NCBI GenBank assembly: GCA_944332645.1
Contig: CALVKK010000001.1
Coordinates: forward strand, 30,059-94,058
Length of the DNA: 64,000 nucleotides
Reading direction: 5' to 3'
Origin: an uncultured Bacilli bacterium
GTDB taxonomy: Bacteria > Bacillota_I > Bacilli_A > RF39 > UBA660
Shown here: piece by piece, positions 1 through 51,763 of the stretch
Numbering within the stretch: the stretch's first letter is position 1
How the letters are laid out: each line of letters opens with the position of its first letter
Notes under the pieces: model-generated
What the model was told of the DNA's origin: nothing
The model's input: only the letters and a program-made list of their open reading frames with translations
Databases searched by the model: none
Program-made: the position numbers and the translations under genes

Positions 1-981
1 AGGATGTGAACTAAACGAAATTACTTGATTAGGTGCGTAAGTAGAATGCGTAGCAAGTGCATGAGCGATACTTGTTGCTTTAGAACATAAACTATTTGAA
101 TTATATAATCCACCCATTGAACCAGATGTATCTAAAACACAAATACAATTCAATGATAAACCACTTGTTTCTTGCTCTACAATTTTTTTACCAATAATAT
201 CAGCTACTTCTTCTATATTATCAGATTTCTTTACGGTTTTGTAAGCATCATGAACATTAGCTGTAGAAGTATTTACTTTTGCTTTATCTTCTTTTACTGC
301 AATAATATATTCGCTAAATCTTTCTTTTAAATCGCTTCTAGTTGAAAATGTATGCAAATATTTTGTCATTGCTAAACTTGGAACTTGTTCAAAATTTATT
401 TTTTCTACCAATGGATGAATGTATTTATTATTTTTGAAAATATCATCAAGAGGTGTGCCATCTTCTTTTAATTCAGCGTAAGACAATTTATATTCAACAG
501 TTGAATCGGTTTTAATTAATGCTCTATATTCCTTTTCAGATATATTCCACATTTCACATAATGCTTTTGCTATTTTTTTATCTTTACCAGTTAGTCTTGG
601 CATCCACTTTTTAGCTAATTCAATATGTTCTTGATCTGTATTGCCAGATAGTACCGCCAACAAATAAGATAAATTTTTATCAGTTGGGATATGCCATAAA
701 TCATCATACCTACCAGCTGTAATAACATTATTAGGTTCTACTTCAGATAATTGCATCAATTTTCTTCCTAAATCGCGTCTACCTTGACCAAATCTAGGAT
801 CTCTCATATACATTGAAAATATTTTTTCTTTCTCACTTTTTCCAATTCTCACTTGATCTAAATTTTTAGAGAAGAAATCAGCCATAAATAACAAGTCAAT
901 TAAATTATTACCGGTACTATTATATGCCTTATCCCCATTTTCAGTTAATTTTTCATTAAACATTTTTTCTATTTTATTCAT
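1..981 (-). CDS. DUF2828-type helical + vWA protein, N-terminal 327 codons only (3' end lies outside the window)
   Basis: Exact copy of 36166..37146, part of the full ORF 35758..37146. Confidence 0.7.
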   Translation of the reverse strand, partial: MNKIEKMFNEKLTENGDKAYNSTGNNLIDLLFMADFFSKNLDQVRIGKSEKEKIFSMYMRDPRFGQGRRDLGRKLMQLSEVEPNNVITAGRYDDLWHIPTDKNLSYLLAVLSGNTDQEHIELAKKWMPRLTGKDKKIAKALCEMWNISEKEYRALIKTDSTVEYKLSYAELKEDGTPLDDIFKNNKYIHPLVEKINFEQVPSLAMTKYLHTFSTRSDLKERFSEYIIAVKEDKAKVNTSTANVHDAYKTVKKSDNIEEVADIIGKKIVEQETSGLSLNCICVLDTSGSMGGLYNSNSLCSKATSIAHALATHSTYAPNQVISFSSHP

Positions 982-1402
982 AATCTTCCTCCTTAATCAT
1001 TTTTCTAATATCATTAATAAAATCGTATATTCTTCGTTTACTATAATTTGTTTTTATTGCAATATATCTTACTTTCATATTTTTAACATATTTTAATAGA
1101 TATATTTTATCTAACATGTTTGAACTATTATTTAATTCTATTTCTTTTAATTTCAATCTATACTCTAAAACATCTCTTAAATTTCGTCTTACATTTATCT
1201 CTTTGTCGATTTCTTCCATCTTTATAGTGTAATTTAAGAATTTATTACTCGAGCTACCTTTTAGTAACTCATTCTCAAAATTAGCCGATTTTGGTACTAC
1301 TGAATACAATAATTGCGACTTTTTAGCTAATGCTTTTTCAAATTCTTTTTTAGCTTCTTTATATTCTTCATTTAGTTTATAGTGTTCAATAAATAGTTCC
1401 AT
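974..1402 (-). CDS. Putative phage late-gene transcriptional activator (ArpU/RinA/sigma region-4-like)
   Basis: 142 aa with a C-terminal HTH-like segment (VRYIAIKTNYSKRRIYDFINDIRKMI). It is the last regulator-like gene before the packaging module. Its 3' end overlaps the downstream gene start by 8 nt. Confidence 0.45.
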   Translation of the reverse strand: MELFIEHYKLNEEYKEAKKEFEKALAKKSQLLYSVVPKSANFENELLKGSSSNKFLNYTIKMEEIDKEINVRRNLRDVLEYRLKLKEIELNNSSNMLDKIYLLKYVKNMKVRYIAIKTNYSKRRIYDFINDIRKMIKEEDYE

Positions 1403-1414
1403 ACTACCACCTCT

Positions 1415-2035
1415 TTATTCTCTATCGAAATGTTCTCTTAATTTGCCGTTTTTCATTCTTACATATTTTGAAATGATGTTATTATGATTTACTATAAATC
1501 CCTCGACATTTCTTTTTACTTTGTTACAGTATTTTTCATAAATACTATCTAAATATTCTTTATTTGGTAAAACATTTAATTCAGCTACATTAGGTACTAT
1601 ACCAATAAAATTAGGAATTGTTTGACTAGCAAATGGGTATATAAACAAATCGTGGTCATAAATTAAATTATATAAATTAAAATCATCATCTATATTGGCT
1701 TTAGCAAACATATACCATTTTTTATCGAACTCATCGATAGTATACTTTAATTGCCCCATTCCAAGCCATTCTCCACAAATAGCACTATTCTCGTGTAATT
1801 CGTTTTGTAGTACTTCTTTATTATCTAGCAACCATTGATACAATCCTTTATATAATATTTCTTTTTGTTCTTCAATTTCTTCAATACAAATAATATTATT
1901 TCTTTGTGCAATGTATAATTTCTCATTTTTCTTAAAAAAGACTAAATTACTACCATCTAATTTTTCAGTAACATAAATCTTATCTCCACTACATTTTACT
2001 CTTTTTGTTTTAGGATAAATTCCTTTTTTTATCAT
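1415..2035 (-). CDS. ATP-dependent RNA ligase-like nucleotidyltransferase (minimal NTase domain, Rnl2/DraRnl-type family)
   Basis: Motif I is EKLDGSN (KxDGxN). CGEW, VEGFIV (EGxV motif IV) and KYVRMK (motif V-like) are also present. At 206 aa it is too short to carry a DNA-ligase OB domain. Confidence 0.6.
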   Translation of the reverse strand: MIKKGIYPKTKRVKCSGDKIYVTEKLDGSNLVFFKKNEKLYIAQRNNIICIEEIEEQKEILYKGLYQWLLDNKEVLQNELHENSAICGEWLGMGQLKYTIDEFDKKWYMFAKANIDDDFNLYNLIYDHDLFIYPFASQTIPNFIGIVPNVAELNVLPNKEYLDSIYEKYCNKVKRNVEGFIVNHNNIISKYVRMKNGKLREHFDRE

Positions 2036-2424
2036 TCTTTCACCTCATAAGTCATACTTTCAAATTGTTCTTTCGTTACTATTGATTTAATAGGATAATG
2101 TTTTATATAAGGATTTATAGTTTTATATCCATGTTCCATTATTAATGTAAAATTAAAAATATCATCACCATTTGGGTTATATATTGCAGTTACTTTATAT
2201 CCATTAACATAATCTCCTTCTTCAATTAAATCGATTATGTTATAACTTGCTTTTAATACATCTTTTTTTTCTATATAATTAATTTCTTCTTTATCTATAA
2301 AAAATCCATCAATTTCAGGAAAAACGCCAATTCCTACATCAACACTATCTTCGTGAAATTCTCTATAAAGTTTACAAATACCATTGTTTTTAGTTCTAAC
2401 ATACATTCCTTCTTCTAATTTCAT
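2032..2424 (-). CDS. Hypothetical phage protein
   Basis: 130-aa ORF with 4-nt overlaps to both neighbours (operon packing). Confidence 0.6.
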   Translation of the reverse strand: MKLEEGMYVRTKNNGICKLYREFHEDSVDVGIGVFPEIDGFFIDKEEINYIEKKDVLKASYNIIDLIEEGDYVNGYKVTAIYNPNGDDIFNFTLIMEHGYKTINPYIKHYPIKSIVTKEQFESMTYEVKE

Positions 2425-2681
2425 ATTTTCCTCCCAAAAACATCATTAATGCCACAGTCTTTCACTTGGTCTTGTATATCTAATATTTGATTAAGTAATT
2501 TGCAATATTCTACTGGTTTATTATCGCTAGTGTATATTATTTTAAAGTATCTGCATGGTTTAGCGCACACGCCATATTTCTTAATTTTTTTAAATTTATG
2601 ATGACAGTACTGTGTGTTTTTAGGTATAAACAAGCTAGCCCATTTTTCTTTAATCTTCTTCATCTTCCACCTCAATATCAT
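2421..2681 (-). CDS. Hypothetical Cys-rich phage protein
   Basis: 86-aa ORF. The true start may be the internal MKKIKEKW (about 2663). Confidence 0.5.
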   Translation of the reverse strand: MILRWKMKKIKEKWASLFIPKNTQYCHHKFKKIKKYGVCAKPCRYFKIIYTSDNKPVEYCKLLNQILDIQDQVKDCGINDVFGRKI

Positions 2682-2731
2682 TACTCTCGTAAACTTGTCC
2701 GAATTTACTTTTGCATTCGTTACATATCATT

Positions 2732-3088
2732 TTAAGCATCTACTTTCTGTAAATTACTTATTATTCCGTTAATTAATTCGGCTAATTTATCGCCACATTC
2801 ATTATTCATTCTTAATTTTTCTTGAATATAACCACCTAATTTAATACTATCGGTCGAAAAACCATAACTCGTATGATCAATAATACTAACAAACAAATAG
2901 TTTGATTTGATACCTCTTTGAAATTGTCCGTATTTTATATCTAACCCTAATTTAAAAACTATATCTAAATGTGTTGATTTCTCATCAGTCCAACCTATTC
3001 CTACTGTACCTCCTGTTTTTATAATATTTGCTATGGTTTTATATGTATTTTCGCCATTTATTATTTCACCATAATTATCTACATTCAT
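2732..3088 (-). CDS. Hypothetical phage protein
   Basis: 118-aa ORF in the early operon. Confidence 0.55.
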   Translation of the reverse strand: MNVDNYGEIINGENTYKTIANIIKTGGTVGIGWTDEKSTHLDIVFKLGLDIKYGQFQRGIKSNYLFVSIIDHTSYGFSTDSIKLGGYIQEKLRMNNECGDKLAELINGIISNLQKVDA

Positions 3089-3104
3089 TATTTATCACTC
3101 CTAA

Positions 3105-3341
3105 TCATTTTTTAAAACTATAAGTATTACATCCCATTCCACCTGAAGCAAAAATATAATTTCCGTTTAATATTTTTCCTATGCAATCATCACATAAATT
3201 TAATTTTTCATTACAAAGATATGGTGGGCATTTTTTACCTTCATTCTGTTCAGTTGTAAATATGACTTGTATGTCGACTTCTTCATTTTTAGTCTCTTTC
3301 TTACATACATCACAATAAATTTTTGTTATTATTTGATTCAT
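3105..3341 (-). CDS. Hypothetical zinc-ribbon protein
   Basis: CxxC (CDVC) and CDDC pairs. Overlaps its neighbour by 4 nt. Confidence 0.55.
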   Translation of the reverse strand: MNQIITKIYCDVCKKETKNEEVDIQVIFTTEQNEGKKCPPYLCNEKLNLCDDCIGKILNGNYIFASGGMGCNTYSFKK

Positions 3342-3625
3342 TCTTTACCTCCTGTTATTTCTTTATATTTTGATAAAATCTTTTCCATTATAGCGATCCA
3401 ATTTTTAATAACAGGGTTCATCATCATATAATCGCCATTAATTTGAGAATATGTATTTTTTATAAAGCTTATTTCACTTTCTAACCATTGTATAAATTCT
3501 TTTTGTTGATTTTTTAATTTTTGATTTTCTTTTTTTAGTTCATCTATTTTAGGCTGTAATTCTAGTAAGACATTTGCTCTAGCTATTGCTATATCTAATT
3601 CTTCATCACTTGCACCACTTATCAT
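3338..3625 (-). CDS. Hypothetical coiled-coil phage protein
   Basis: 95-aa ORF, operon packing. Confidence 0.5.
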   Translation of the reverse strand: MISGASDEELDIAIARANVLLELQPKIDELKKENQKLKNQQKEFIQWLESEISFIKNTYSQINGDYMMMNPVIKNWIAIMEKILSKYKEITGGKE

Positions 3626-3639
3626 TTATTCCACCCCTT

Positions 3640-3903
3640 TTAATATGTTACTTTAATACCTTTTGCTTCTATATTGTCGTGATTTAAATTAATAATTCCT
3701 TTGTTTGCTAATTTATATATCAATGAAAATGACTCAAGTATTTCATCGTCTAAAATAAATTTTGTTTCTGGTCCCTGATATTTGATAAATATATTATTTA
3801 TATCAATCAAGATTGCCTTTATCGTATCTTCTTTTGAATATGCTTTATAATAACGGTCGTTTTTTAGCATATTATTAATTTCTGCTTTTATTTGTTCTAA
3901 CAT
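3640..3903 (-). CDS. Hypothetical phage protein
   Basis: 87-aa ORF. Its start overlaps the stop of the upstream gene by 1 nt. Confidence 0.5.
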   Translation of the reverse strand: MLEQIKAEINNMLKNDRYYKAYSKEDTIKAILIDINNIFIKYQGPETKFILDDEILESFSLIYKLANKGIINLNHDNIEAKGIKVTY

Positions 3904-4676
3904 TATTCCACCTCATTTAAAACTTTTTGCTTTTCTAATTTATCGAAATCTGTAAATATACTTGCTTGTCCCCACGCAGTAATTCCGTTTATTCTTTTAT
4001 TTGCTATTTCATAATATTCTTTATTTATTTCCATACCTATAAATCTTCTTCCCGTTTCTTGACAAGCCACACAAGTTGTACCACTTCCACAAAAACAATC
4101 TAATACTATATCATTTGGTTGCGTTGTATGTAATATATGTCTTTTAACAAGGTTAAGTGGTTTTATTGTTGGATGATTATAAAGAATTTTGTCATTTTGA
4201 TTTAAAGAACTTACATACCATTTACTTTTTAGTTCATAACCATTATTTAATTTTGTTCCTCTATTAAAATACAAACAATATTCTATATCACTTAACCAAT
4301 TACCATTACACATAGGAACAGGATTAGTTTTATTCCATGTTAATATTTGATATGTAGAATTAGTGTTTTTGTTAAACCAATCTAATATTGAAAATATTTG
4401 TTCCTTGCTACACCATATAAAACAATTTACATTTTTTAGGATTCTTACAAATTCATCAAAAATTTTATAATCAATACCATCGTAAATGTCTGCTTTTTTT
4501 AATTCTTTTTTCATTTTTTGAACCTGTAAAGCAATTCTCGAAGTTCCTGTTCCACCTTGTTGAAAAAGATAAGGAATATCTACATAAATGCAATCAACAC
4601 TTTTATCAGGTATATTTTTAATCATCTCATAGCAATCACAATTGATTATTTTGTTTATCATATCTTCAAATTTCAT
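3903..4676 (-). CDS. DNA methyltransferase (N6-adenine/N4-cytosine, beta class, PF01555-like)
   Basis: The motif IV-like VDIPY (DPPY-type) precedes the AdoMet motif FCGSGTT, which is the beta-class order. Confidence 0.85.
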   Translation of the reverse strand: MKFEDMINKIINCDCYEMIKNIPDKSVDCIYVDIPYLFQQGGTGTSRIALQVQKMKKELKKADIYDGIDYKIFDEFVRILKNVNCFIWCSKEQIFSILDWFNKNTNSTYQILTWNKTNPVPMCNGNWLSDIEYCLYFNRGTKLNNGYELKSKWYVSSLNQNDKILYNHPTIKPLNLVKRHILHTTQPNDIVLDCFCGSGTTCVACQETGRRFIGMEINKEYYEIANKRINGITAWGQASIFTDFDKLEKQKVLNEVE

Positions 4677-4678
4677 TT

Positions 4679-4864
4679 TTAATCTACCTCTACTAAATAT
4701 CTTCTTTTTTTACCTGTACCTCTTTTTTGGTAAGTTGGTGTATTATAAAAATCTAATGTCCTCTTTTTTACACCCATTTTTTTAGCAATTTCTTCTTTTG
4801 TACCAAATGCTAATTCAATATCGCCTTTATATAGTGAATAATAAACTTTTTTCATATCTTCCAA
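4679..4864 (-). CDS. Small hypothetical protein, possible HTH
   Basis: 61-aa ORF with a KEEIAKKMGVKKRTL segment. Confidence 0.45.
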   Translation of the reverse strand: MEDMKKVYYSLYKGDIELAFGTKEEIAKKMGVKKRTLDFYNTPTYQKRGTGKKRRYLVEVD

Positions 4865-5037
4865 ATTCCCAACTCCTTTAACAGCTTAATTTTTTCATTT
4901 TTCGTTAAATTCCAATTATTCCAAATGGTACTTTGCAATTCAATTAATGCGCATTTATCGTTCAATAGTTTTGCTTTAAACACAGCTCTTTTGTAGCTTG
5001 GCAGAAAATATTTTTTAAACGATTCTAGATATTTCAT
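4852..5037 (-). CDS. Small hypothetical phage protein
   Basis: 61-aa ORF with overlapping neighbours. Confidence 0.4.
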   Translation of the reverse strand: MKYLESFKKYFLPSYKRAVFKAKLLNDKCALIELQSTIWNNWNLTKNEKIKLLKELGIWKI

Positions 5038-5372
5038 AATTCTTTCAGCTCACAATCTTGATATATATACTCAAACATCTTCTTTTTCAATAAATAATCT
5101 TTTGTTTTATATCCTTTTGTATCTTCAATTATCATTTTTTTTAATTTATTATCATAGTACATAAAATCTGCTATATATTCTATCTTTCGATATGATTTAT
5201 TATTTTTCTTGAATTTTGGCTGTAGTTCGAATTTTGGTTGTAATGTTAAATCAGTTATTTCATTTGCTTTCAATAGTAAATCTAATTGATGAAATCTTTC
5301 ATGTTCTTTCTTACTGTCAAAAAATCGGTTAGCTTTATCACAATAAACTTTTTCATTACGATACTTATTCAT
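5034..5372 (-). CDS. DUF1064-family protein (putative Holliday-junction resolvase/nuclease)
   Basis: FDSKKEHERFHQL...ITDLTLQPKFELQP...YIADF...EDTKGYKTKDY matches my memory of the DUF1064 signature. Confidence 0.7.
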   Translation of the reverse strand: MNKYRNEKVYCDKANRFFDSKKEHERFHQLDLLLKANEITDLTLQPKFELQPKFKKNNKSYRKIEYIADFMYYDNKLKKMIIEDTKGYKTKDYLLKKKMFEYIYQDCELKEL

Positions 5373-5387
5373 CCAGTTACCCCATTT

Positions 5388-5807
5388 CTACCACTTAGTA
5401 AGTTCATTATTTTTTATAGCATTTGTTATTTCAAATACTTCTTCATTTGTATAATCTTTTTTTAAACCTACCAAAATTGATGGCGGTGTTGGTATTTCTT
5501 TGTTAATAGGTCGCCAAATATGCAAACAATATGGATGATTATTAACATAATCTTTTTTTGCTGGATGTAATTGCATACATACCTCATCATCTTTCCAAAA
5601 TAAATCTTTCATTGAACACATTTGTTCCCACGATGGACATCTAGTTGGCATCGATACCGAACAATGTTCAAATTCAGCTCCCCAACTCATTATAAAATTT
5701 AAATGACATCTACTTTTTTTATCGTAAAAAGTCCCACCAAAACCATCTCTACCTTCTTTTTTTATTTCTAAATATTTATTCTTTTTGATTTCTTCTAAAC
5801 TTTTCAT
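5388..5807 (-). CDS. Conserved hypothetical phage protein
   Basis: 139-aa ORF. The HCSVS...CPSWEQM...LHIW pattern recurs in phage early regions (recalled, family name uncertain). Confidence 0.55.
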   Translation of the reverse strand: MKSLEEIKKNKYLEIKKEGRDGFGGTFYDKKSRCHLNFIMSWGAEFEHCSVSMPTRCPSWEQMCSMKDLFWKDDEVCMQLHPAKKDYVNNHPYCLHIWRPINKEIPTPPSILVGLKKDYTNEEVFEITNAIKNNELTKW

Positions 5808-6157
5808 TTAGTACTCCATTTCTTATAAACTAAATTCGACTTATCCCAACTTGGATAAAGACTCTTTAAATAATTTTCCATTATTGATAACATTTCTTTT
5901 CGTAGACTTTGATTACCATTGTCCAGCAAATGATGATGATATCTACACCCCTCAACCCCGTTTTCTTCAATTCCTAAACCCATTTTTGACTTGGGTACAA
6001 AGTGCATAATATCGTGAATTATAAAATCCATTTTATTAGGATTAAATTCTTCACAATGATAACCAATTCTACAAAAAAGACACGAATAATTATCTCTTTG
6101 TTGTATGGTCCTTATTGTGTCTTTATTAAATTGTAATAATTTTGTATAATTTGGCAT
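5804..6157 (-). CDS. Putative HNH/zinc-binding nuclease-like protein
   Basis: Cys/His-rich (CLFC...H...CRYHHH). Lies next to the NinB-like gene. Confidence 0.35.
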   Translation of the reverse strand: MPNYTKLLQFNKDTIRTIQQRDNYSCLFCRIGYHCEEFNPNKMDFIIHDIMHFVPKSKMGLGIEENGVEGCRYHHHLLDNGNQSLRKEMLSIMENYLKSLYPSWDKSNLVYKKWSTK

Positions 6158-6625
6158 TTAAGCCACCCCCTGACTTTTAACATCTTCCTCTAATTCTTCT
6201 AACTCTTCCGGACTTAATGTTTCGATTCCTTGTTGTTTGCATTCTTCACAAAGTCCTTTCAATAAAATTGCAAATTCAGCTGTATTTAATTCGTGGCTAG
6301 GAGTGTACACGTGGTACACATAAAATTCCTTGCCATTTTTTAATATCTTTGATTTTTTTTCGTAATATTCGATACCTCTAATATTACTTTCATTAGGTAC
6401 TAAAATTTCATATCTAGGACTATAAGATTTAAGCATCTCAAAATGTAATTCTTCTATTCCTATTTTTGTCTTTAATGATAATTCTCCTAATAATTTCCAA
6501 TACTTTTTATTTTGTTTTTTATTTCTTTTTTCTTTGTATTCTTTTATTTCAAATAATTTATTTTTGTCTTGGTCATACAACCATTGAATTATTTTTAAGA
6601 CATTTCCTATCATTAATCTAACCAA
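6158..6625 (-). CDS. NinB/Orf-like recombination-associated protein (tentative)
   Basis: RNKKQNKKYWKLLGELS resembles the RSxxQNxxxW motif of NinB-type proteins. Confidence 0.35.
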   Translation of the reverse strand: MVRLMIGNVLKIIQWLYDQDKNKLFEIKEYKEKRNKKQNKKYWKLLGELSLKTKIGIEELHFEMLKSYSPRYEILVPNESNIRGIEYYEKKSKILKNGKEFYVYHVYTPSHELNTAEFAILLKGLCEECKQQGIETLSPEELEELEEDVKSQGVA

Positions 6626-7020
6626 TTATCATCAATAGACACACTTTCACCAAAATCAGCGAACACATCAGTATTGTCTTGTTTTTCTTCTTTAGTTTCT
6701 TCTTTTTTCTTGCTATTTAAGAACATTACTCTTTCAGCAACGACTAATGTTTTGTATCTATTTTCGCCGTCTTTAGTTGTAAATTTTTCAGTTTGTACTC
6801 TACCTTCTATAGCTACTAAACTACCTTTATCTAAATATTGGCAAATATTTTCAGCTTGCTTTCTCCACACTCTAATTTCAATAAAATCAGCCTCTTTTTT
6901 TCCGTCTTCACGAGGTGGTCTATCTACTGCTAAATTGAAACTCGTTACTGCTATGTTTGAACTTGTATATTTTAATTCAGGTTTGGCTGTTAACCGACCT
7001 ATAAGTATTGCTTTATTCAT
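6613..7020 (-). CDS. ssb: Single-stranded DNA-binding protein
   Basis: MNKAILIGRLTAKPELKYT...FIEIRVWRKQAEN...VAIEGRV is an OB-fold SSB signature, followed by an acidic C-terminal tail. The start at 7020 has an AAGGAG RBS. Confidence 0.85.
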   Translation of the reverse strand: MNKAILIGRLTAKPELKYTSSNIAVTSFNLAVDRPPREDGKKEADFIEIRVWRKQAENICQYLDKGSLVAIEGRVQTEKFTTKDGENRYKTLVVAERVMFLNSKKKEETKEEKQDNTDVFADFGESVSIDDNWLD

Positions 7021-7330
7021 TACTTTTCTCCTTACTATTTTTACTTTCAAAATAATTAATCGTACTTTTTATATATGATAGTGAATTATTTAATTTTTCT
7101 ATTGCGTAATCGGAATATATCCCTTTATGTTCTACATAAACTTCTAATACTGCTGATATGCCTATTAAACTATCAACTAAATCTTTTAAAAATGCACTAT
7201 CCCTAGAACCAGTAGAATAATATTCATCATAAATTTTCATATAATAATGTTCTATTTTGTTAAGTTCTCTATTTAATGAATCTTGAGTATTTTGTCTAAA
7301 GAAATCTCTATCTATATTGCTTCCAAACAT
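7013..7330 (-). CDS. Hypothetical phage protein
   Basis: 105-aa ORF, operon packing. Confidence 0.5.
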   Translation of the reverse strand: MFGSNIDRDFFRQNTQDSLNRELNKIEHYYMKIYDEYYSTGSRDSAFLKDLVDSLIGISAVLEVYVEHKGIYSDYAIEKLNNSLSYIKSTINYFESKNSKEKSNE

Positions 7331-8031
7331 TCTCTAAACTCTACCTCCAATTCTTCTCTTTCTTCATCATTATGAAGTTGATTTAAATACCTATTTGCTT
7401 CTTCTAATATTTCCATATATTTAACATTATTTTTTATAGCATTATTAACCGTATCATATCTTTCTTTGTCTTCCGCTGCTTTTGTATATACTAAATACAA
7501 ATCACTTAATACTTGATATTTTCTACCTTGAAGATAATTAGATAAGTAGGTATCTGTTTTTTTGTTGTTTGAGACATAATTATCTATATATACATCTCTT
7601 ATTTCTTTATTACTAACACCATTATCATCTAAAAAATCTTCTGCTATTTTTGTTAGCATATCTTCTTCTTCACTTTCGGCTGCTTGTATTAATTCATATC
7701 CTTTTTCTTTTCTTATGTAATATTTTTCACAAGAACATATTAAATCAAATATTGCACCGTTAATTTGTTTCTTTAGAATTTTTATATTGCTTTGATTAAT
7801 ATGATAAGTTATAAAATTATAATTGCTATAATCATTATTTTTTATATTAATTTCCAATACAATACTGTTGCTTTGTGTATTAATTTCGTATAGTTGTAAC
7901 GAAAATATAAAATCTTTATATACAAACAAATTCCATTTTTTATTCCAAAGTTCTCTATCTAAATAATTTTTTATTATAAAACTATAATCAATTTCATATT
8001 GCTTAATAATTAAGTTATTCATTACGTTCAC
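7312..8031 (-). CDS. Hypothetical phage protein
   Basis: 239-aa ORF. Confidence 0.55.
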   Translation of the reverse strand: MNVMNNLIIKQYEIDYSFIIKNYLDRELWNKKWNLFVYKDFIFSLQLYEINTQSNSIVLEINIKNNDYSNYNFITYHINQSNIKILKKQINGAIFDLICSCEKYYIRKEKGYELIQAAESEEEDMLTKIAEDFLDDNGVSNKEIRDVYIDNYVSNNKKTDTYLSNYLQGRKYQVLSDLYLVYTKAAEDKERYDTVNNAIKNNVKYMEILEEANRYLNQLHNDEEREELEVEFRECLEAI

Positions 8032-8035
8032 CCTT

Positions 8036-44196: not shown

Positions 44197-44200
44197 CCTT

Positions 44201-44776
44201 TTAATATTTACTTTCCCAATTTTCTTGATAAATCTTTAACAAGTCATATTTTTCTAGCCAATTCATAAATTTATAAATTTCTTCTTTTAAATCCATTTTT
44301 AATTCTTCACGATAATATTCTTCTTTAAAAATTCGTAATTGTTTTTTATCTTCTTCCCAGTCGTTTACCATATCTTTTTTATCAAAATTATTACAAATTA
44401 CATATTGCATTTTATATGCCTCTGGTACTAATTCCATATAAACTGCTGTTTGATAACTTCCGTAAAATTTACCGACATCATAATTGTTAGTGTGCTTATA
44501 ATCAGTAATAACTCCAGCTTTTAAACAATCAATTTTTCCGTAGACAATGAAATTATCAATATTTTTATATACTTTAACTTGGTAACATCCATTTTTTGTT
44601 TCAGGATAATGAGCAACCATATACTCCTCAAACTCATTACCCTTAACAAATTTACTTTTATCTTCGACTTCTTCTTTTTTTAAAGTTTTAATAAAATCTT
44701 CCAAAGTGCCATATTGATTTTCGACACAATATTTCCAACTATTCAGCAATGTCGGTGTTATTAGATACTTTTTCAT
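44201..44776 (-). CDS. PD-(D/E)XK nuclease
   Basis: Exact copy of 8036..8611. Confidence 0.5.
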   Translation of the reverse strand: MKKYLITPTLLNSWKYCVENQYGTLEDFIKTLKKEEVEDKSKFVKGNEFEEYMVAHYPETKNGCYQVKVYKNIDNFIVYGKIDCLKAGVITDYKHTNNYDVGKFYGSYQTAVYMELVPEAYKMQYVICNNFDKKDMVNDWEEDKKQLRIFKEEYYREELKMDLKEEIYKFMNWLEKYDLLKIYQENWESKY

Positions 44777-45692
44777 ATTCTTTCTTCTCACTATTCCATT
44801 GATAACCTAATTCTGCTACCTTTTCTTTAAATTTGTGTTTCAACTCTTTTTCACTTGTTAAAATATGATTAGTTTCTTTAATTAATTTTGTCATACTTGT
44901 TAAATCTTCTTTGGTTTCCATTTTTTCAATTTGTGGTACTATTTCATTCATTAATTTTTCATATTCTTTCTTTTGTTCTTCAAAGAATACAGCTTCTTTT
45001 TTGATGTTGTTATTAGCTAATTGAAACAATTTTGTTAAAAAGTCATTTGGTTTTGTTCCGTCTAATTCAGGTATTTTCATTACACCTTTAATTCCAAAAC
45101 TTGCTTTAGCAAAATATCTTTCACAATTATCGAATCCGATAGTTTTCTTTTTACCGATAATTTCCATAAAGCCACCAATTTCAACATTTTGCCATACTGT
45201 GTTTTTTGTAGATCCTTCTACTAAAATTCTTAACTTTGTTTGTTCCTCATCTTTTTCTTCAACTGCGTGAAAAACAATAACAATGTTTTTTCTTAAATTG
45301 TAGTAGCAATTATCCATAAATCTTGAAAATTCTCTTGCCACAGCTCCATAACCTTGTAATGATAAACTACCGTCTTTTTTAGCATTTTTAACATCCTGTT
45401 TAATAACATAATTCTTCATTAATTCTAATAATTTTCCACCAGTATCAATTACTAAAGTTTCATAATCACTTAAATCGCCTTTTAAATCTTCGATTAATTC
45501 TTCATAACTATTTGGTTGAATAAAGTCTTTTCTTGCACTAGCCATAACTCTATTGATACCTAAATCTACATCTACCAATAATGGTTTTGGTGCAGATAAA
45601 GCTAAAGTCGTTTTACCTATTCCTGGATACCCAGCTATTAACATTCTTATTTTTTGATTTTCATTAATTAATTCATTTGGTTTTTTTATCAT
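44739..45692 (-). CDS. AAA_24/Sak4-like ATPase
   Basis: Exact copy of 8574..9527. Confidence 0.7.
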   Translation of the reverse strand: MIKKPNELINENQKIRMLIAGYPGIGKTTLALSAPKPLLVDVDLGINRVMASARKDFIQPNSYEELIEDLKGDLSDYETLVIDTGGKLLELMKNYVIKQDVKNAKKDGSLSLQGYGAVAREFSRFMDNCYYNLRKNIVIVFHAVEEKDEEQTKLRILVEGSTKNTVWQNVEIGGFMEIIGKKKTIGFDNCERYFAKASFGIKGVMKIPELDGTKPNDFLTKLFQLANNNIKKEAVFFEEQKKEYEKLMNEIVPQIEKMETKEDLTSMTKLIKETNHILTSEKELKHKFKEKVAELGYQWNSEKKEYEKVSNNTDIAE

Positions 45693-46009
45693 AAATTCAT
45701 TCCTCCTATTTTACTTTTCCATTCCATAATTTTTGTCGTTCTAAACATTTGATTTGCACGATGTTTAGTATTGTTAATTGTTTCTTCTACCTCTTCTCGT
45801 GTTGTACAGATATAAAATCCACCACTAATACCCGATATACTTCCAATCAATTTTGGATACTGCTTGTCCTCTCTGATATTTTGAATGATCTTTCGCATTG
45901 TCTTATCACTATTCACATTGAATATTTGTCGTAAGTCTTTGTTTTTGATTAAATTAGCTTTTCCTAAATGATTTTTACAAAGGTATTCATAAACTAATTT
46001 TTCACGCAT
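45689..46009 (-). CDS. Hypothetical protein, possible winged-helix
   Basis: Exact copy of 9524..9844. Confidence 0.45.
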   Translation of the reverse strand: MREKLVYEYLCKNHLGKANLIKNKDLRQIFNVNSDKTMRKIIQNIREDKQYPKLIGSISGISGGFYICTTREEVEETINNTKHRANQMFRTTKIMEWKSKIGGMNL

Positions 46010-46179
46010 GGTATTAACCTCGCTTTTTTGTGTTTGAATCGCTCTTGTAGTTCTTTTGCTCTTTTAGGTGTAAATACTTTAGCCTCGTTTATATCTCTAA
46101 CAATGTGGTACATTGGAATACTAGGCTTAGCCCACTTTAGATACACTTTTTCGTTTGAAACTTCTATTTCTACAATCAT
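45994..46179 (-). CDS. Small hypothetical phage protein
   Basis: Exact copy of 9829..10014. Confidence 0.4.
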   Translation of the reverse strand: MIVEIEVSNEKVYLKWAKPSIPMYHIVRDINEAKVFTPKRAKELQERFKHKKARLIPCVKN

Positions 46180-46847
46180 TTTTCACCCCTTAATTCTTTT
46201 TCAAAAGCCTCTAATTCTTCATCAGTTAGTAAATCATCATCGACATTTTTATTGAACCAGTCAGGAACTTGTTCTATTGGCTTTTCGTTTTTTAAACGGT
46301 CAAAAATTATTCCTTTGTAATTATTTGCCATGCACTCATCGATTAAGTTAATAATTTTTTCTTCGCCATATTTTTTTGTGTTGTTTTCAATTTGCGTTAG
46401 TAAAGACTTTAATCCTGTTTCAGTATAATGTTCTTTTCGCTCTTTTTTGTACATGAGCCAATCTTCAATCTTTCCCCTTAACAATCCCCTATCTTTTAAA
46501 AACTCTAAATTAGAAACTAAAAACTTAAAACTTAAAACACTTGTTTTGTTTTCTTCCGGTTCCTCATTCGGTTTCTTTCCGGTTTGCTTTCCGGTTTTTC
46601 TTTGGTTTGCCTTTCGGTTTTCTTCCGGTTCATTTTTTTTACTTCTTTTTGAATTGTTTTTTGATAAATTTAACTGTGATTTCAAAGTGTTAAAGACTGC
46701 TTGATTGTGTCCTGTTAATATAGGTTCAATATCTTTAAATACATAATCAGTAATAGCTATTAATAAAATACTTTTATCTTCTATTGGTAATGTATCGATT
46801 AAGTTATAATAGTCATAATAAAATGTAAAACTATTTACTTTATTCAT
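46176..46847 (-). CDS. Putative replication initiator / replisome organiser (contains iterons at 46553..46631)
   Basis: Exact copy of 10011..10682. Confidence 0.5.
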   Translation of the reverse strand: MNKVNSFTFYYDYYNLIDTLPIEDKSILLIAITDYVFKDIEPILTGHNQAVFNTLKSQLNLSKNNSKRSKKNEPEENRKANQRKTGKQTGKKPNEEPEENKTSVLSFKFLVSNLEFLKDRGLLRGKIEDWLMYKKERKEHYTETGLKSLLTQIENNTKKYGEEKIINLIDECMANNYKGIIFDRLKNEKPIEQVPDWFNKNVDDDLLTDEELEAFEKELRGEK

Positions 46848-46850
46848 TCC

Positions 46851-47000
46851 TTAACACCTATCCTTTAGTTCTTTTTTAAAATCGTTTATTATGTCTTCAA
46901 TTTGACATAATCTAATTTTTAAGATATACTTTAGTTGTAAATTTTTATTTACAACTTGATTGGAGCACCCCCGTGACCAATCTTTTTTTTGTACAGTCAT
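46851..47000 (-). CDS. Small hypothetical protein
   Basis: Exact copy of 10686..10835. Confidence 0.35.
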   Translation of the reverse strand: MTVQKKDWSRGCSNQVVNKNLQLKYILKIRLCQIEDIINDFKKELKDRC

Positions 47001-47017
47001 TTTTACATCACCCCTTT

Positions 47018-47251
47018 CTATAAATTCACTAAACAATAATCTCGATCATTATTTCGACTGCATTGTTCTAAAGCATTGTTCTGTAATAAATAGCCTAAAT
47101 AGAACATACCTACTAACAATGCACCAACCACAACCATACCGATTATCATTCTGTGTTCTTTTTTCTTCTTTTCTTTTAAAAATTGTTTTCTCATTTTAAT
47201 TTGATTTTCTTTTAATACTTCGTTTAATGTTTTTCCCTCTTTATTTTTCAT
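47018..47251 (-). CDS. Small membrane protein
   Basis: Exact copy of 10853..11086. Confidence 0.5.
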   Translation of the reverse strand: MKNKEGKTLNEVLKENQIKMRKQFLKEKKKKEHRMIIGMVVVGALLVGMFYLGYLLQNNALEQCSRNNDRDYCLVNL

Positions 47252-47278
47252 ATAGCTTGTCCTTTCTTTTTTAGAAAA

Positions 47279-47395
47279 CTATGAATAATAATTTTCTTGA
47301 ATAAATAATGTTAGATTTTTTATTATTTTTTCTAATCTTTCTTTATTAGGTGGATTAGAACTTTTTATTTTTAATGCAGACTTGTTTTTTTTCAT
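47279..47395 (-). CDS. Possible 38-aa basic peptide
   Basis: Exact copy of 11114..11230. Confidence 0.25.
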   Translation of the reverse strand: MKKNKSALKIKSSNPPNKERLEKIIKNLTLFIQENYYS

Positions 47396-47502
47396 ATTCT
47401 CACCTACTAAATAATATTTTTTTAAGGTTTGTCCTTATTCTTTAAATTATTTTGTTGACTTGCTTTATGTTCTCCTTTACAATGTTTTTGAAAGGAGGAA
47501 TT

Positions 47503-47733
47503 ATGGCAAATCAACATACTGTTCCAAATCCAAATGGTGGTTGGGATGTAAAACGTGAAAACGCTAAACGCGCAACTAAACATTTTGATAATCAAAGCGA
47601 TGCATATAAATATGCTCAATCAATCGCTAAAAATCAAAACAGTGAAGCGCTTTTACACGGTCGTGACGGTAAGATTCGTGCTAGAGAAAGTTACGGAAAC
47701 GACCCAAAACACATTAAGGATACGGAATATTAA
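47503..47733 (+). CDS. DUF2188-family small protein
   Basis: Exact copy of 11338..11568. Confidence 0.65.
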   Translation: MANQHTVPNPNGGWDVKRENAKRATKHFDNQSDAYKYAQSIAKNQNSEALLHGRDGKIRARESYGNDPKHIKDTEY

Positions 47734-47752
47734 TATTTGCAGTTAGTTTTTT

Positions 47753-47920
47753 CTAACTGTTTTTTTCTTTTACTCTAACTATATAAGGTTTAATAATATC
47801 AACATATTCTTGAGTAAATTCAACTATTATTTCTTTAGTTTCTTCATTTTGAATAATTACATATTCTATATTTTTGTTTAAAATATTATTGCATTTTTCT
47901 TCTTTTTGACATTCTTTCAT
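47753..47920 (-). CDS. Possible 55-aa early protein
   Basis: Exact copy of 11588..11755. Confidence 0.35.
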   Translation of the reverse strand: MKECQKEEKCNNILNKNIEYVIIQNEETKEIIVEFTQEYVDIIKPYIVRVKEKNS

Positions 47921-47925
47921 CTTAT

Positions 47926-48171
47926 CTACTCCTGTTCGTTGTTTTTCTGCTTATTCGCATATATTTTTCTAAAAAAAATGTCAAAATCTTCGTTATATAC
48001 TAGCAAAATTTTTTCTAATATATCGATTTGCATAGAAACCTGATTATTCTCATATCTACAAAGTGTATCTTTATTAATACCAGCCTTTTCGGCTACAATT
48101 TCAATAGACATTTTTTCTTTAGCTCTAATAGAACGAAGTTCATCAGCTATTAATTCTCTAGTATTTTTCAA
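47926..48171 (-). CDS. Cro-like XRE-family regulator
   Basis: Exact copy of 11761..12006. Confidence 0.75.
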   Translation of the reverse strand: MKNTRELIADELRSIRAKEKMSIEIVAEKAGINKDTLCRYENNQVSMQIDILEKILLVYNEDFDIFFRKIYANKQKNNEQE

Positions 48172-48304
48172 CTTTATCCCTCCTAACTACCTACATTATA
48201 CTATGCTTATTTGCAGAAGTCAATACTTTTTATGCAAATAAGCATAATTTTTATTGCTTTTTTAAAAAAAATAATATATAATCAATATGAAAGGAGGAAT
48301 TACT

Positions 48305-48943
48305 ATGCCTAATTTCTTTTCTTCAAACCTTAAATTTTTAAGAGAAAAAAAAGGATTATCACAAAATAAGTTGGCTGAAAAGGTAGGTGTAAATCAAACC
48401 ACAATTGCAAGATGGGAAACAGAAGAAATTAAACCATCTATTGACAATGTAGAACAAATTGCTAACGCATTAAATATTGGGCTACCTGAATTACTTATTT
48501 CAGACTTAAGGTTCGATAATGCTGATGTTGTAGACATACCATCAAATACTATAAAAATACCAGTTTTAGGTGTAATTAAGGCCGGAATACCTATAGAAGC
48601 CCAACAAGATATAATAGATTATGTTGAGATACCTAAAGATTGGACTAAAGGCGGTAAAGAATACTACGGACTAAAAATTAGTGGTGATAGTATGTACCCC
48701 AAATATGATAATGATGATATAGTAATTTTCTTAAAAACAAATGAAGTCATAAGTGGTAAGGACTGCGCTGTTATGGTCAATGGATTTGATGCTACATTTA
48801 AAAAGGTATTATTTCAAAATGATAGTATAGTATTGCAGCCATACAATAGCAACTACCAAGTACAAATATTTAATAAAGAACAAATAGAACAATTACCAGT
48901 TAAAATAATCGGAATAGCAAAAGAGAAAAGGACAAAATTATAA
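48305..48943 (+). CDS. CI/LexA-like repressor (HTH + S24 peptidase)
   Basis: Exact copy of 12140..12778. Confidence 0.85.
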   Translation: MPNFFSSNLKFLREKKGLSQNKLAEKVGVNQTTIARWETEEIKPSIDNVEQIANALNIGLPELLISDLRFDNADVVDIPSNTIKIPVLGVIKAGIPIEAQQDIIDYVEIPKDWTKGGKEYYGLKISGDSMYPKYDNDDIVIFLKTNEVISGKDCAVMVNGFDATFKKVLFQNDSIVLQPYNSNYQVQIFNKEQIEQLPVKIIGIAKEKRTKL

Positions 48944-49056
48944 ACATGATGATGAAGCAAATAGATATATTAAATTCCTATTAGAAAATAAAATTGATTA
49001 AAAATACGCTAGTACAGGTATTTTTAAAATAGATGTATGATTGGAGGTGTATTTTT

Positions 49057-49425
49057 ATGATATTTATTTTGGATTTTTTTATTACAATGAGTTGTTATAT
49101 GGTTTATCCTTTGGTAAAATTCGTTGTCTTAAACAAAGATGTGGAATTTACAACAAAAGATGTAAACAAAACCTGTATTATAAATAGTATTGTATGGGCT
49201 ATAATATTCTTAATTATAGGAATTAATATAATTCCAAATTACGAGCCTAACTTTGCACCTGCAATGATATGGTATTGTATTAATTACAGCATTTATTATC
49301 TAAAATATCGCAATGAAGATAATGTAAAAATTTTCGATAATAGAACTAAAAAATTAGCAATTTTAGCACTTGTTTTGGTAATCATTGTTATACTAATATA
49401 TGCATCTATATTTAAAAATATCTAA
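49057..49425 (+). CDS. Multi-pass membrane protein (moron)
   Basis: Exact copy of 12892..13260. Confidence 0.55.
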   Translation: MIFILDFFITMSCYMVYPLVKFVVLNKDVEFTTKDVNKTCIINSIVWAIIFLIIGINIIPNYEPNFAPAMIWYCINYSIYYLKYRNEDNVKIFDNRTKKLAILALVLVIIVILIYASIFKNI

Positions 49426-49571
49426 TTGGCTTAGTAAACATTTTAACACATATATATAGTAGTGTCTCTAATAAGTATTATTATTTCAATATTTAATTAC
49501 AATGATATAATTAGCTTAAAACTTGCTAGTACGGGAGTTTTAAAATAGATGTTAGATAGGAGGTGTATTAA

Positions 49572-50093
49572 GTGAAAAAATTACTAATGATTGGTTTAAC
49601 TATGGTTTTACTTGCTGGAATTACAGGTTGTACAGAAACTGTTTCTCAAGATGAGTCTGGAAACGAAAAAAAAGAATTTACTTTAACAGAAACAGCTATA
49701 GTAAATGATACAAAAATAAAAATAAATTCTGTTACAAAATTAGAAAGAGAATGTTCTTGGGAGTATGACGGAGAATGTCAAAGCTATACAGAGCCTGAAA
49801 ATGATTATTTTTTAGTTATTGATTTAACAATAGAAAATAACGGTTCTGAAGAGTTAAACATATCTTCTATGATGAGTTTTGATTTAAAAGACTCAAACGG
49901 AGAAAGAGGAAAATATGCTTTATTAACTGAAGCTATTTCTAGCCAATTAGATGGCTCCATAATGTCTGGTGATTTATTAAAAGGGCAAATCGCTTATGAT
50001 GTTAAAGATTCAGATACATTTAATTTTTACTATTTAGATAGTCTATTGGATGATCAAATTAAATTTGTTATCAATAAATCTGATATGCAATAA
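49572..50093 (+). CDS. DUF4352-like lipoprotein (moron)
   Basis: Exact copy of 13407..13928. Confidence 0.7.
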   Translation: MKKLLMIGLTMVLLAGITGCTETVSQDESGNEKKEFTLTETAIVNDTKIKINSVTKLERECSWEYDGECQSYTEPENDYFLVIDLTIENNGSEELNISSMMSFDLKDSNGERGKYALLTEAISSQLDGSIMSGDLLKGQIAYDVKDSDTFNFYYLDSLLDDQIKFVINKSDMQ

Positions 50094-50206
50094 AATTGTA
50101 TAAAAAAACTACCGCGGCAACGGTAGCAACGAAAACAAGTCTGCATAATTGTACGTGTTTTCATGTACAATTATAGCATAAAATTTAGTAAAAAGGAAGT
50201 GCTATA

Positions 50207-51724
50207 ATGAAGAATCAGGTTATAAATGAATTTAAAGAATGGCTTAAATCACAAAAATTTAATAATACAATATATGAAAAAATTGCTGGAGCATATATAA
50301 GAATTTCAACTGATAAACAAGATGAATATTCTCCAATTTCGCAATTAAAAGCAATTTGGGAGTATTGTGAAAGAAATAATATGTATTTAAATATTGATTA
50401 TATTTTTATAGAAGATGAGGGAATATCGGGGAAAAACGCACTTAAACGAACTGAATTCCAAAATATGATTGCTACTGCAAAAGCCGATAAAAAACCTTTT
50501 GACACAATTGTTTTATGGAAATTCAGCCGATTTGCTCGTAATCAAGAAGAAAGTATCGTATATAAATCTCTATTAAGAAAGAAACACAATATAAATATTA
50601 TATCAGTTTCTGAACCACTTCCTACAGGTCCATTTGGCGGGCTTATAGAGCGAATTATCGAATGGTTTGATGAATATTACCTTGTAAACCTTTCGGGCGA
50701 AGTAAAGCGTGGAATGACTGAAAAAGCACTAAAGGGAGGACTGCAATCAACTCCAGCTTTTGGATACGATGTTGATAAGCAAAATAACATTCTTGTAGTA
50801 AATGAAAGTGAATCTCAAATTGTAAAATTTATTTATGAAGAATTTACTATTAAAAACAAATCTATGTTAGATATTGCAAAACAATTATATAAAATGAATA
50901 TAAAGACAAAAAAAGGAAAAAGATTTGAAGCAAGAACAATTTATTATATTTTAGCTAATCCTGTTTATATAGGTAAATTAAGATGGACACCAACGGGTAA
51001 AACAAAATGGGATTTCAACAATGAAGAAAGTATAATAGTTAATGGAAAACATGAAGCTATAATTTCAAATGAATTATTTGAAAGAACACAAAATATTTTA
51101 AAAACTAGAATTAGAAAACCATATCAACGAATTGACAGTGAAGTTAATTATTGGTTGCGTGGTATTATAAGATGTAAAGAATGTGGTCATACATTAATAA
51201 AACACAATAGAAAGAAATTAAGATGTAATGGATACAATCACGGACAATGTTCTAATCAAACTACATTAGTAATGAGCGAAGTTGAAAATTTAGTTATACA
51301 ACAAATAAAAAGAGATTTTAGTACTGGAATAATAAGTAATATTGTGGAAAAATCAAAAACCGAAAAAAAGGTAGACACAAAGTCAATAATTTTAAATCAA
51401 ATTAAAATGAATGAATTAAAACTAAATAGAGCTAAAGAAGCTTACCAAAGTGGAGTTGACAGTTTAGAGGAATATAAAGAAAATAAAATAAAAATAGAAA
51501 AAGAACAACAATATTTAAAATCACAGCTAAATGAATTTTCGAATAATAACGAAAGTAATTTAGACGATCATAAAAAAGAAATAATTGAAAATGGAAAAAA
51601 AGTTTACGAAATTCTATTAAATGAAAACATCTCAATAAGAGAAAAAAATGACATACTACATCAACTAATTAATAAAATAGAATTTAACGAAAACACTTAT
51701 GAATTAACGATTTTTTACAATTAG
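50207..51724 (+). CDS. Large serine recombinase (integrase)
   Basis: Exact copy of 14042..15559. This copy abuts host DNA. Confidence 0.9.
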   Translation: MKNQVINEFKEWLKSQKFNNTIYEKIAGAYIRISTDKQDEYSPISQLKAIWEYCERNNMYLNIDYIFIEDEGISGKNALKRTEFQNMIATAKADKKPFDTIVLWKFSRFARNQEESIVYKSLLRKKHNINIISVSEPLPTGPFGGLIERIIEWFDEYYLVNLSGEVKRGMTEKALKGGLQSTPAFGYDVDKQNNILVVNESESQIVKFIYEEFTIKNKSMLDIAKQLYKMNIKTKKGKRFEARTIYYILANPVYIGKLRWTPTGKTKWDFNNEESIIVNGKHEAIISNELFERTQNILKTRIRKPYQRIDSEVNYWLRGIIRCKECGHTLIKHNRKKLRCNGYNHGQCSNQTTLVMSEVENLVIQQIKRDFSTGIISNIVEKSKTEKKVDTKSIILNQIKMNELKLNRAKEAYQSGVDSLEEYKENKIKIEKEQQYLKSQLNEFSNNNESNLDDHKKEIIENGKKVYEILLNENISIREKNDILHQLINKIEFNENTYELTIFYN

Positions 51725-51763
51725 TCTCTTTTGAAGTATGGTGGACCCGATTCAGAACTAGGA
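51724..51763. other. attR hybrid site (phage left arm + host cotJC right arm)
   Basis: Identical to attP through 51747 (GTCTCTTTTGAAGTATGGTGGACC), then diverges into the cotJC reading frame. The right inverted arm of attP is absent. Confidence 0.7.

Follow-up and report, generated by a model that had tools for sequence, protein, structure and literature searches.

An apparent tandem prophage in the spore-coat gene cotJC of an uncultured gut Bacilli bacterium: probably one integrated copy and free phage DNA

Introduction

In the deposited genome of an uncultured human-gut 'Bacilli bacterium', a temperate phage stands twice, head to tail, within a sporulation gene. The locus raises the question whether the chromosome carries two integrated copies or whether the doubling was made during assembly. 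Polylysogeny itself has long been known, and tandem lysogens as well as concatemeric contigs have both been described. We analysed a stretch of 64,000 nucleotides, here called the window, which corresponds to positions 30059–94058 of the full contig (C1). A preliminary description of the window had read the locus as a tandem prophage of at least 1.43 units and had considered further copies upstream. The host genome is approx. 1.1 Mb in size and encodes Spo0A, SpoIIID, SpoIID and a cotJ operon.

Results

Two identical phage units between host flanks

The repeat and the two phage units are located as follows.

1–15582, no strand: distal 15.6 kb of phage unit 1 together with the attP core, identical to 36166–51747.
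C1:9463–45627 (window −20595 to 15569), no strand: phage unit 1, whole, extent taken from contig C1.
15570–51734, no strand: phage unit 2, one complete genome of 36,165 bp, from the extent of the repeat in C1.

Comparison of window positions 1–15582 with 36166–51747 gave 0 mismatches and the identity stopped exactly at 15582 and 51747, in agreement with the exact repeat and the 36,165-bp period first described. Following this period across the whole of C1, we found C1:9463–45640 to be identical to C1:45628–81805 over 36,178 bp. In the full contig the repeat comprises two complete 36,165-bp units and a 13-bp core at 100% identity. The repeat was therefore real and larger than the at least 1.43 units seen in the window, resolving to exactly 2.000 units. 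An exact repeat of 36 kb cannot be a product of chance.

The layout of C1 was attL-phage-attP-phage-attR, head to tail, with 9.46 kb of host DNA at the left side and 27.5 kb at the right. Wrap-around of a circular phage contig, already excluded in the preliminary description, was rejected because host DNA flanks both sides. Two different phages lying side by side were likewise rejected, since the two units do not differ at any of their 36,165 bp. The suggestion of further copies upstream proved wrong: attL was located at C1:9463, and the other 112 contigs of the MAG held no further phage copy and no attB, which leaves two units only.

Attachment sites and the interrupted cotJC gene

15570–15582, no strand: 13-bp core AGTATGGTGGACC, attP copy, common to attL, attP, attR and attB.
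15559–15598, no strand: internal attP, dyad arms around an 18-bp spacer, from sequence and DNA fold (z = −4.0).
51735–51747, no strand: attR core, joint of phage arm and host DNA, at the end of the repeat and at scaffold ends.
51748–52213, plus strand: 3' portion of the host gene cotJC; the gene call here is a hybrid ORF of 160 aa that begins at 51731.
52223–53143, plus strand: host D-Ala-D-Ala ligase, first gene of the right host flank, from Pfam.

The core was present three times, in attL (C1:9463, 20.6 kb before the window begins), in attP (15570–15582) and in attR (51735–51747), and it encodes part of the QYGGP motif in cotJC. At the junction of the units it is surrounded by two perfect 11-bp arms, GTCTCTTTTGA (15559–15569) and TCAAAAGAGAC (15588–15598), which are 18 bp apart, and the site lies 10 bp downstream of the integrase stop. 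Two elements of the preliminary description were thereby borne out: a complete attP at the unit junction and a phage-host hybrid, attR, at the right end. In the sequence record the hybrid attL and attR are outermost and the intact attP lies between the identical units. Crossover probably takes place within the shared 13-bp core, at the central GG (15578–15579), a position suggested by the sequence. On either reading of the locus, the intact attP junction shows that the phage was non-integrated or duplicated in the sample and hence probably active.

The phage interrupts the coding sequence of cotJC, a spore-coat gene of the Mn-catalase family. When the flanks were joined in silico, an intact CotJC of 186 aa was obtained, with 91–95% identity over 100% of the length to uninterrupted proteins. 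The exact CotJC protein and the exact attB DNA were found uninterrupted in other samples, and the empty site was present in other samples of the same project. At empty sites the gene order was cotJB-cotJC-ddl.

Phage genes and the integrase

14042–15559, plus strand: large serine integrase, copy 1, 505 aa (Pfam Resolvase, Recombinase and Zn_ribbon_recom).
50207–51724, plus strand: large serine integrase, copy 2, 100% identical to copy 1 (Pfam).
15633–16442, minus strand: CHAP-LysM endolysin, first gene inside the right phage arm (Pfam).
16664–34635, minus strand: lysis, tail, head and packaging module (PHROGs and Pfam).
48287–48943, plus strand, with copy 1 at 12122–12778: CI-like repressor with HTH and S24 peptidase (Pfam).

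The module at 16664–34635 includes tail proteins, a 1526-aa virion protein, a major head protein, a P22-like portal and a large terminase; the last two suggest that packaging is of the headful type. The integrase comprises an N-terminal resolvase-type catalytic domain (PF00239, E = 1e-22), followed by the C-terminal domains Recombinase (PF07508, E = 2e-23) and zinc ribbon (PF13408, E = 2e-8). Two solved serine recombinase catalytic domains, 3g13 (motif YCRVSTDSEDQ) and the TP901-1 integrase 3bvp, aligned with its serine motif AYIRISTDKQ. Identity to any phage record was only 25–40%. With the catalytic serine motif, the C-terminal domains and the adjoining dyad attP all found, the protein is, as judged from its sequence, a large serine recombinase. 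Recombinases of this family act on the pair of attP and attB and, in the presence of an RDF, on the pair of attL and attR. The release of monomers by recombination between attL and the internal attP, as first proposed, does not fit this established behaviour and was therefore rejected. In a true tandem, attL x attR recombination would release a dimer circle; for monomers to be set free, the two units would have to undergo homologous recombination, which would also collapse the array.

Resolvase, Recombinase and zinc ribbon domains together with a short dyad-symmetric attP are shared with phages of the A118, TP901-1, phiC31 and Clostridium tetani phiCT453B type; compared with these, the 13-bp identity between attP and attB is longer here than in most.

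Assembly evidence around the core

The MAG consists of 113 contigs with an N50 of 13.6 kb and no Ns, which are short-read characteristics, and the longest exact repeat resolved inside its contigs, the phage aside, was 256 bp. These assembly statistics and the repeat limit indicate a short-read platform, whose reads could not have spanned an exact repeat of 36 kb.

The same strain was held by an independent ENA primary assembly, ERZ28614592 (0 mismatches over 7,766 bp). There the locus was split into separate pieces whose breakpoints coincide exactly with the two edges of the core and with k=55 vertices. Scaffold_11422 ended at 51747, the last base of the core, and the attR scaffold_2410 began exactly 55 bp before the divergence point 51748. 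On the other side, scaffold_2320 with the endolysin arm ended at window position 15570, the first base of the core, and the attL scaffold_7390 ended exactly 55 bp past the core start. A Logan contig of run ERR4096558, which carries the endolysin, ended at the same base, 15570. In ERZ28614592 attP thus forked on both sides and attL, attP and attR were all represented; no attB branch was retained in this assembly, and its attL and attR scaffolds were unbroken at the inner core edges. Because the independent assembly breaks at the core boundaries, C1 is one possible walk through a graph loop. The tandem claimed earlier was accordingly upheld as the layout of the contig and not as a physical linkage.

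C1 came from a different assembly than ERZ28614592, being more than 1 kb shorter at the left end and 83 bp longer at the right. Overlaps between contig ends of the MAG were 37, 50, 58, 69 and 77 bp and pointed to no constant k. The primary assembly had an apparent 7-bp break in an AT-rich phage stretch; with this break and the many contigs, the coverage looks low. Since the attP edge survived in such an assembly, its abundance probably did not fall far below that of the host junctions.

Related phages at the same site

Among 201 family genomes, two integrase copies were found only in G000. Three other genomes had related phages at the same site, each as a single copy, and G237 (one contig) and G127 (four contigs) each contained one integrase copy abutting a cotJC fragment. 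In 11 of 12 attR contigs of sister phages the sequence went directly from the integrase into the host with no fork. A search of IMG/VR with the exact attP, and with the phage arm plus core, gave no matches. Scans of metagenomes and genomes for the att sequences returned only attR contigs of the G023 type and one attP contig, L014. The latter is an independent contig of 2.5x coverage in another MAG and carries the free attP junction of a related phage; the MAG's own cotJC is uninterrupted and its site divergent. The free attP on L014 together with the uninterrupted cotJC in its MAG indicates that the phage lineage occurs in non-integrated form in stool metagenomes.

Discussion

We consider it probable that the sample held one prophage together with free or replicating phage DNA, and that the tandem is a path chosen by the assembler. 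The assembly topology fits this reading and also a true dilysogen. A temperate tailed phage of 36,165 bp would have been integrated once in cotJC by its large serine recombinase, and the sample would also have contained phage DNA with an intact attP, as excised circles, replicating concatemers or circularly permuted virion DNA. In the de Bruijn graph, the two host flanks (host-left and host-right) and the phage would then each form an edge, and a short fourth edge, attP, would join the two ends of the phage. A path leading from one flank to the other by way of attP would, at its shortest, traverse the phage twice and would yield two identical units and one core, as in contig C1. The physical chromosome would hold one prophage, the doubling being the work of the assembler or of a loop resolver. 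We infer both the extrachromosomal state of the attP molecules, as opposed to a second integrated copy, and the way in which the assembler built the contig.

Such a loop walk predicts 2.000 units plus the 13-bp core at 100% identity, and contig C1 fits this prediction. The SPAdes simple-loop resolver emits the order edge-loop-edge-exit. Concatemeric or loop-unrolled viral contigs likewise have identical copies, an integer number of units and boundaries at graph branch points; all three were found here, and the independent assembly breaks at these very points. Short-read assemblies are described to emit concatemeric viral contigs, of which 635 with a CheckV kmer_freq of at least 2 were removed in one study (PMC12807717), and reads across attP can come from circular or concatenated induced phage (PMC8008629). 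Typical concatemeric viral contigs are free, whereas the units in C1 are embedded between host flanks, so that the contig resembles a dilysogen. The lack of an attB branch disfavours simple excision without replication, for which attP would be expected to equal attB.

A true head-to-tail dilysogen, in which two identical copies are physically integrated in cotJC as attL-phage-attP-phage-attR, is possible and clearly less probable than one prophage with free phage DNA. The deposited contig has exactly this structure with both host flanks, and in the independent assembly attL, attP and attR were present and the attB branch absent, a graph topology in line with the attP = attL = attR and attB = 0 that a tandem predicts. 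Furthermore, the attP edge survived graph cleaning despite the apparently low coverage. Tandem lysogens are also well documented in lambda and in other phages. The classical, Campbell-type lambda dilysogen has the same layout, in which two identical units follow each other head to tail on either side of an intact attP and the outer ends are hybrid. Lambda, however, uses a tyrosine integrase; here the enzyme is a large serine recombinase, which would not be expected to insert a further copy site-specifically at attL or attR, and the tandem is one of contig layout. A second site-specific event by a serine integrase could not build the array, as attP is not paired with attL or attR. We therefore would ascribe a dilysogen, with the same reserve, to integration of a dimeric circle via one of its two attP sites or to RecA-dependent homologous recombination by which a second genome, incoming or replicated, enters the resident prophage. 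Against two integrated copies speak that the reads of such an assembly cannot link both units, that exactly two copies is also the outcome of the minimal graph walk, and that every other genome or contig with the phage lineage shows a single copy. Natural tandems of an identical prophage are moreover rare compared with detectable free phage DNA.

Developmental excision in the mother cell, of the skin/SPbeta type, appears very unlikely as the source of the attP junction. In this case a sporulating subpopulation would excise the phage precisely and thereby restore cotJC, and the assembler would have threaded attP reads from the non-replicating circles into the contig. A phage with a large serine recombinase indeed splits a sporulation gene, and CotJC is intact once the flanks are joined; Spo0A, SpoIIID and SpoIID are encoded by the host, and cotJC has been cited as a target of such elements. 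Equal amounts of attB and attP would be expected, yet the primary assembly forks at attP on both sides and has no attB fork.

Least probable of all is a mis-join or co-assembly chimera, in which co-assembly or bin reassembly would have combined two samples or strains, one a lysogen and the other a carrier of free phage: C1 and the ENA primary assembly differ, with unequal ends, and other samples of the project carry the empty site, but the single run ERR4096558 already has a contig (Logan) ending at the core edge, so that one sample suffices for the loop.

The cotJC phage can be compared with known intervening prophages and elements of sporulation genes, SPbeta in spsM (SprA/SprB), skin in sigK (SpoIVCA/CisA), vfbin and gin. 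It is like the SPbeta/skin type in its large serine recombinase, its insertion within the coding sequence of a sporulation gene and the precise in-frame rejoining of the ORF. Unlike in these systems, the host belongs to an uncultured small-genome lineage of gut Bacilli, and the phage looks complete and not degenerate. As a locus targeted by intervening elements, cotJC was named by Abe et al. 2013, as cited in bioRxiv 10.1101/2021.11.22.469490.

If the doubling is an assembler walk, as we think probable, a host-flanked 'dilysogen' in a short-read MAG may arise from one prophage and free phage DNA; genome size and gene counts would be inflated, and such a locus should be left out of any tally of tandem lysogens. 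A real tandem would represent natural serine-integrase polylysogeny in a sporulation gene and would bear on prophage dosage, immunity and excision products. From such an array, excision by attL x attR with an RDF, be it lytic or developmental, would release a dimer circle with two attP sites and restore cotJC. More interesting for the biology than the doubling is that, in several genera of gut Bacilli with small genomes, cotJC is the target of a lineage of serine-integrase phages.

Results

Structure of the repeat

Positions 1-15582 and 36166-51747 of the window were the same at every base, and the match ended precisely at 15582/51747, which confirmed the exact repeat of the preliminary description. 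Over the whole contig CALVKK010000001.1 (C1), of which the window is C1:30059-94058, identity at a period of 36,165 bp covered 36,178 bp (C1:9463-45640 equal to C1:45628-81805), corresponding to two full units of 36,165 bp and a further 13 bp. The earlier count of at least 1.43 units, perhaps with more upstream, is thus replaced by exactly 2.000 units. The 13-mer core AGTATGGTGGACC was found at all three junctions, and host DNA flanked the array on both sides (left 9.46 kb, right 27.5 kb). No further phage copy or attB was found in the remaining 112 contigs of the host assembly (1.08 Mb, 113 contigs).

Junctions and target gene
C1:9463 (outside the window, 20.6 kb upstream): attL, host / core / phage right arm
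Window 15570-15582: attP, phage left arm / core / phage right arm
Window 51735-51747: attR, phage left arm / core / host
Window 51731-52213 and C1:9381-9475 (left flank, outside the window): the interrupted cotJC

The phage unit and its integrase

By its gene content, one unit is a complete-looking temperate tailed phage.

Genes of the phage unit
CI-like HTH/S24 repressor
Replication module (AAA_24, DUF6291) and DNA methylase
RNA ligase, Ro60-like vWA protein and two tRNAs
Large terminase (Terminase_6N/Terminase_3), P22-like portal and major head protein
Tail proteins and a 1526-aa virion protein
Holin and CHAP-LysM lysin
Integrase, 505 aa, with Resolvase, Recombinase and zinc-ribbon domains, adjoining the att site

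The serine motif RISTDKQ of the integrase aligned with serine-recombinase catalytic domains of solved structures. In attP, perfect 11-bp inverted arms (GTCTCTTTTGA and TCAAAAGAGAC) were separated by 18 bp, with the GG within the core as dyad centre; this layout is the usual architecture for large serine integrase sites.

tRNA-Gln(UUG) and tRNA-Thr(AGU) were called on the minus strand (window 35238-35312 and 35622-35694). They are adjoined by the Ro60-like vWA/DUF2828 protein and the RNA ligase (35758-38200), and together these could form an RNA repair or tRNA-related cassette. The 1526-aa virion protein (20407-24987, minus strand) has a PBECR3 match on record (PF18812) and no PHROG family match.

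The target gene and its host

When the host flanks were joined in silico, they yielded an uninterrupted ORF of 186 aa that belongs to the Mn-catalase/CotJC family, with cotJB directly upstream and ddl downstream. Uninterrupted proteins of the same length had 91-95% identity to the rejoined CotJC at 100% query coverage. The exact rejoined CotJC was present on contigs of other samples in the order cotJB-cotJC-ddl, and the exact attB DNA, core included, on a Logan contig (L035). These empty sites and matching proteins, together with the insertions in relatives described below, support cotJC as the real target site. Another empty site, in the non-lysogen contig L026 (BRZ_AL NODE_66075, about position 1010), carries a synonymous change within the core (AGTATGGCGGACC), which might influence how efficiently the phage integrates, should the change be close to the crossover dinucleotide.

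The host encodes Spo0A (contig C91:419-730) and homologues of SpoIIID and SpoIID (window 55134-58090 region). Database entries for close relatives carry the title 'Bacilli bacterium' and come from the human gut. The host MAG is about 1.1 Mb (92.6% complete), yet holds Spo0A, SpoIIID, SpoIID and the cotJ operon; such a genome is unusually small for a putative endospore former.

Related phages at cotJC

In G023, a genome of a different species of the same genus, a 98% identical integrase was found at the corresponding site in cotJC. There, attL and attR were on separate contigs, and attL read AATATGG (the host variant) versus AGTATGG in attR, which places the crossover right of core position 2. 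G237 (one contig; insertion region G237:C1:1160300-1163000) and G127 (four contigs; G127:C1:333000-335600), from other genera of the family, each had one 51%-identical integrase directly abutting a cotJC 3' fragment. P0136, an attR hybrid protein of a sister species, occurred in 46 indexed blocks of the public collection.

Assembly evidence on physical linkage

C1 by itself cannot settle whether the tandem is physical. The host assembly (N50 13.6 kb, smallest contig 2,545 bp, no Ns) has short-read characteristics, and the longest exact repeat resolved within its contigs, phage excepted, was 256 bp; reads or read pairs of this type would not span 36 kb. The 256-bp direct repeat (C23:4594-4849 and 8468-8723) lies in two diverged paralogous genes of contig C23, 3.9 kb apart.

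The independent ENA assembly ERZ28614592 (sample SAMEA6814369) contains the same strain, with 0 mismatches to C1 over 7,766 bp; the two assemblies are different, because the ends of C1 differ. ERZ28614592 cuts the strain at exactly the expected de Bruijn fork positions.

Scaffold ends in ERZ28614592
scaffold_7390: left flank and attL, stops exactly 55 bp past the core start
scaffold_2320: lysin end, ends on the first core base
scaffold_11422: ends on the last core base
scaffold_2410: attR and right flank, starts exactly 55 bp before attR/attP divergence

A Logan contig from run ERR4096558 had the same terminal base as scaffold_2320. The breaks at the core edges imply a graph in which host-left leads into the phage, and the phage either through the attP edge to its own start or to host-right. 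A walk from host-left to host-right that takes the attP edge has to traverse the phage exactly two times, which is the structure of C1. The simple-loop resolver of SPAdes outputs edge-loop-edge-exit. Concatemeric viral contigs are occasionally emitted by short-read pipelines, and 635 have been removed in one case (PMC12807717).

By scaffold-length arithmetic, ERZ28614592 also appears to break the phage at window 43975-43981 (= 7810-7816), where the sequence is extremely rich in AT, leaving a 7-bp gap without k-mer overlap. The break probably reflects a loss of coverage, which points to low depth.

Discussion

We consider it probable that the assembler unrolled C1 from one prophage plus phage DNA that was free, replicating or packaged. 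attP reads can arise without another integrated copy: induced phage in circular or concatenated form yields them (PMC8008629), and headful-packaged virion DNA would do likewise. A 3-kb contig at 2.5x coverage (L014, CALWAA010000158.1; BRZ_DD bin71; 2640-2760) carries the intact attP of a related phage, and the MAG holding it has its own cotJC uninterrupted, with a divergent site (AGTTTGGTGGTCC); this contig is probably free phage DNA, mis-binned or from another host. Among 201 family genomes only the present one has two integrase copies. Sister-phage attR contigs run from integrase to host without a fork in 11 of 12 cases; one of the contigs, L113, has its start exactly 30 bp ahead of the point of divergence, which indicates a fork at k=31. 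The IMG/VR relatives measure 30-42 kb, with 0 of double length. One integrated copy with no attP detected is thus the usual situation, and a fork at attP is seen occasionally.

A true dilysogen is possible, though we think it rather unlikely. The attL and attR scaffolds of ERZ28614592 cross the inner core edge unbroken, and attP branches survive graph cleaning on both sides while the attB branch does not, matching the tandem prediction attP = attL = attR, attB = 0. Forks at attP without one at attB also agree with phage DNA that is being replicated or packaged (attP >> attB). As the assembly looks low in coverage, the attP edge was probably not very rare. Developmental excision circles are very improbable, since plain excision without replication, including that of the sporulation type, would give attB = attP, and no attB branch was kept. 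That co-assembly created a chimera is more improbable still.

Large serine integrases recombine attP with attB, and attL with attR when a recombination directionality factor (RDF) is present. These pairing rules exclude the release of monomers by attL x attP recombination, as had been proposed, and a real tandem could not form by a second site-specific event. If the tandem were real, it would have originated by integration of a dimer circle or by RecA-mediated recombination with the prophage already in place. Recombination of attL with attR would then excise a dimer carrying two attP sites and restore cotJC, and monomers would arise only by inter-unit homologous recombination or headful packaging. 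Tandem lysogens are already known from the lambda paradigm, as are assembler-made concatemers, so the doubling adds no new type of system on either reading.

Targeting of cotJC by phages or transposons in spore-forming bacteria is already in the literature (Abe et al. 2013, according to a passage in bioRxiv 10.1101/2021.11.22.469490). Sequence comparison indicates that a lineage of phages with large serine integrases targets the same position of cotJC in no fewer than four genomes, which represent three genera of this family of small-genome gut Bacilli. These phages are candidate sporulation-gene intervening prophages. Prophages interrupting sporulation genes are a known class, to which the serine-integrase phage in cotJC adds a new member.
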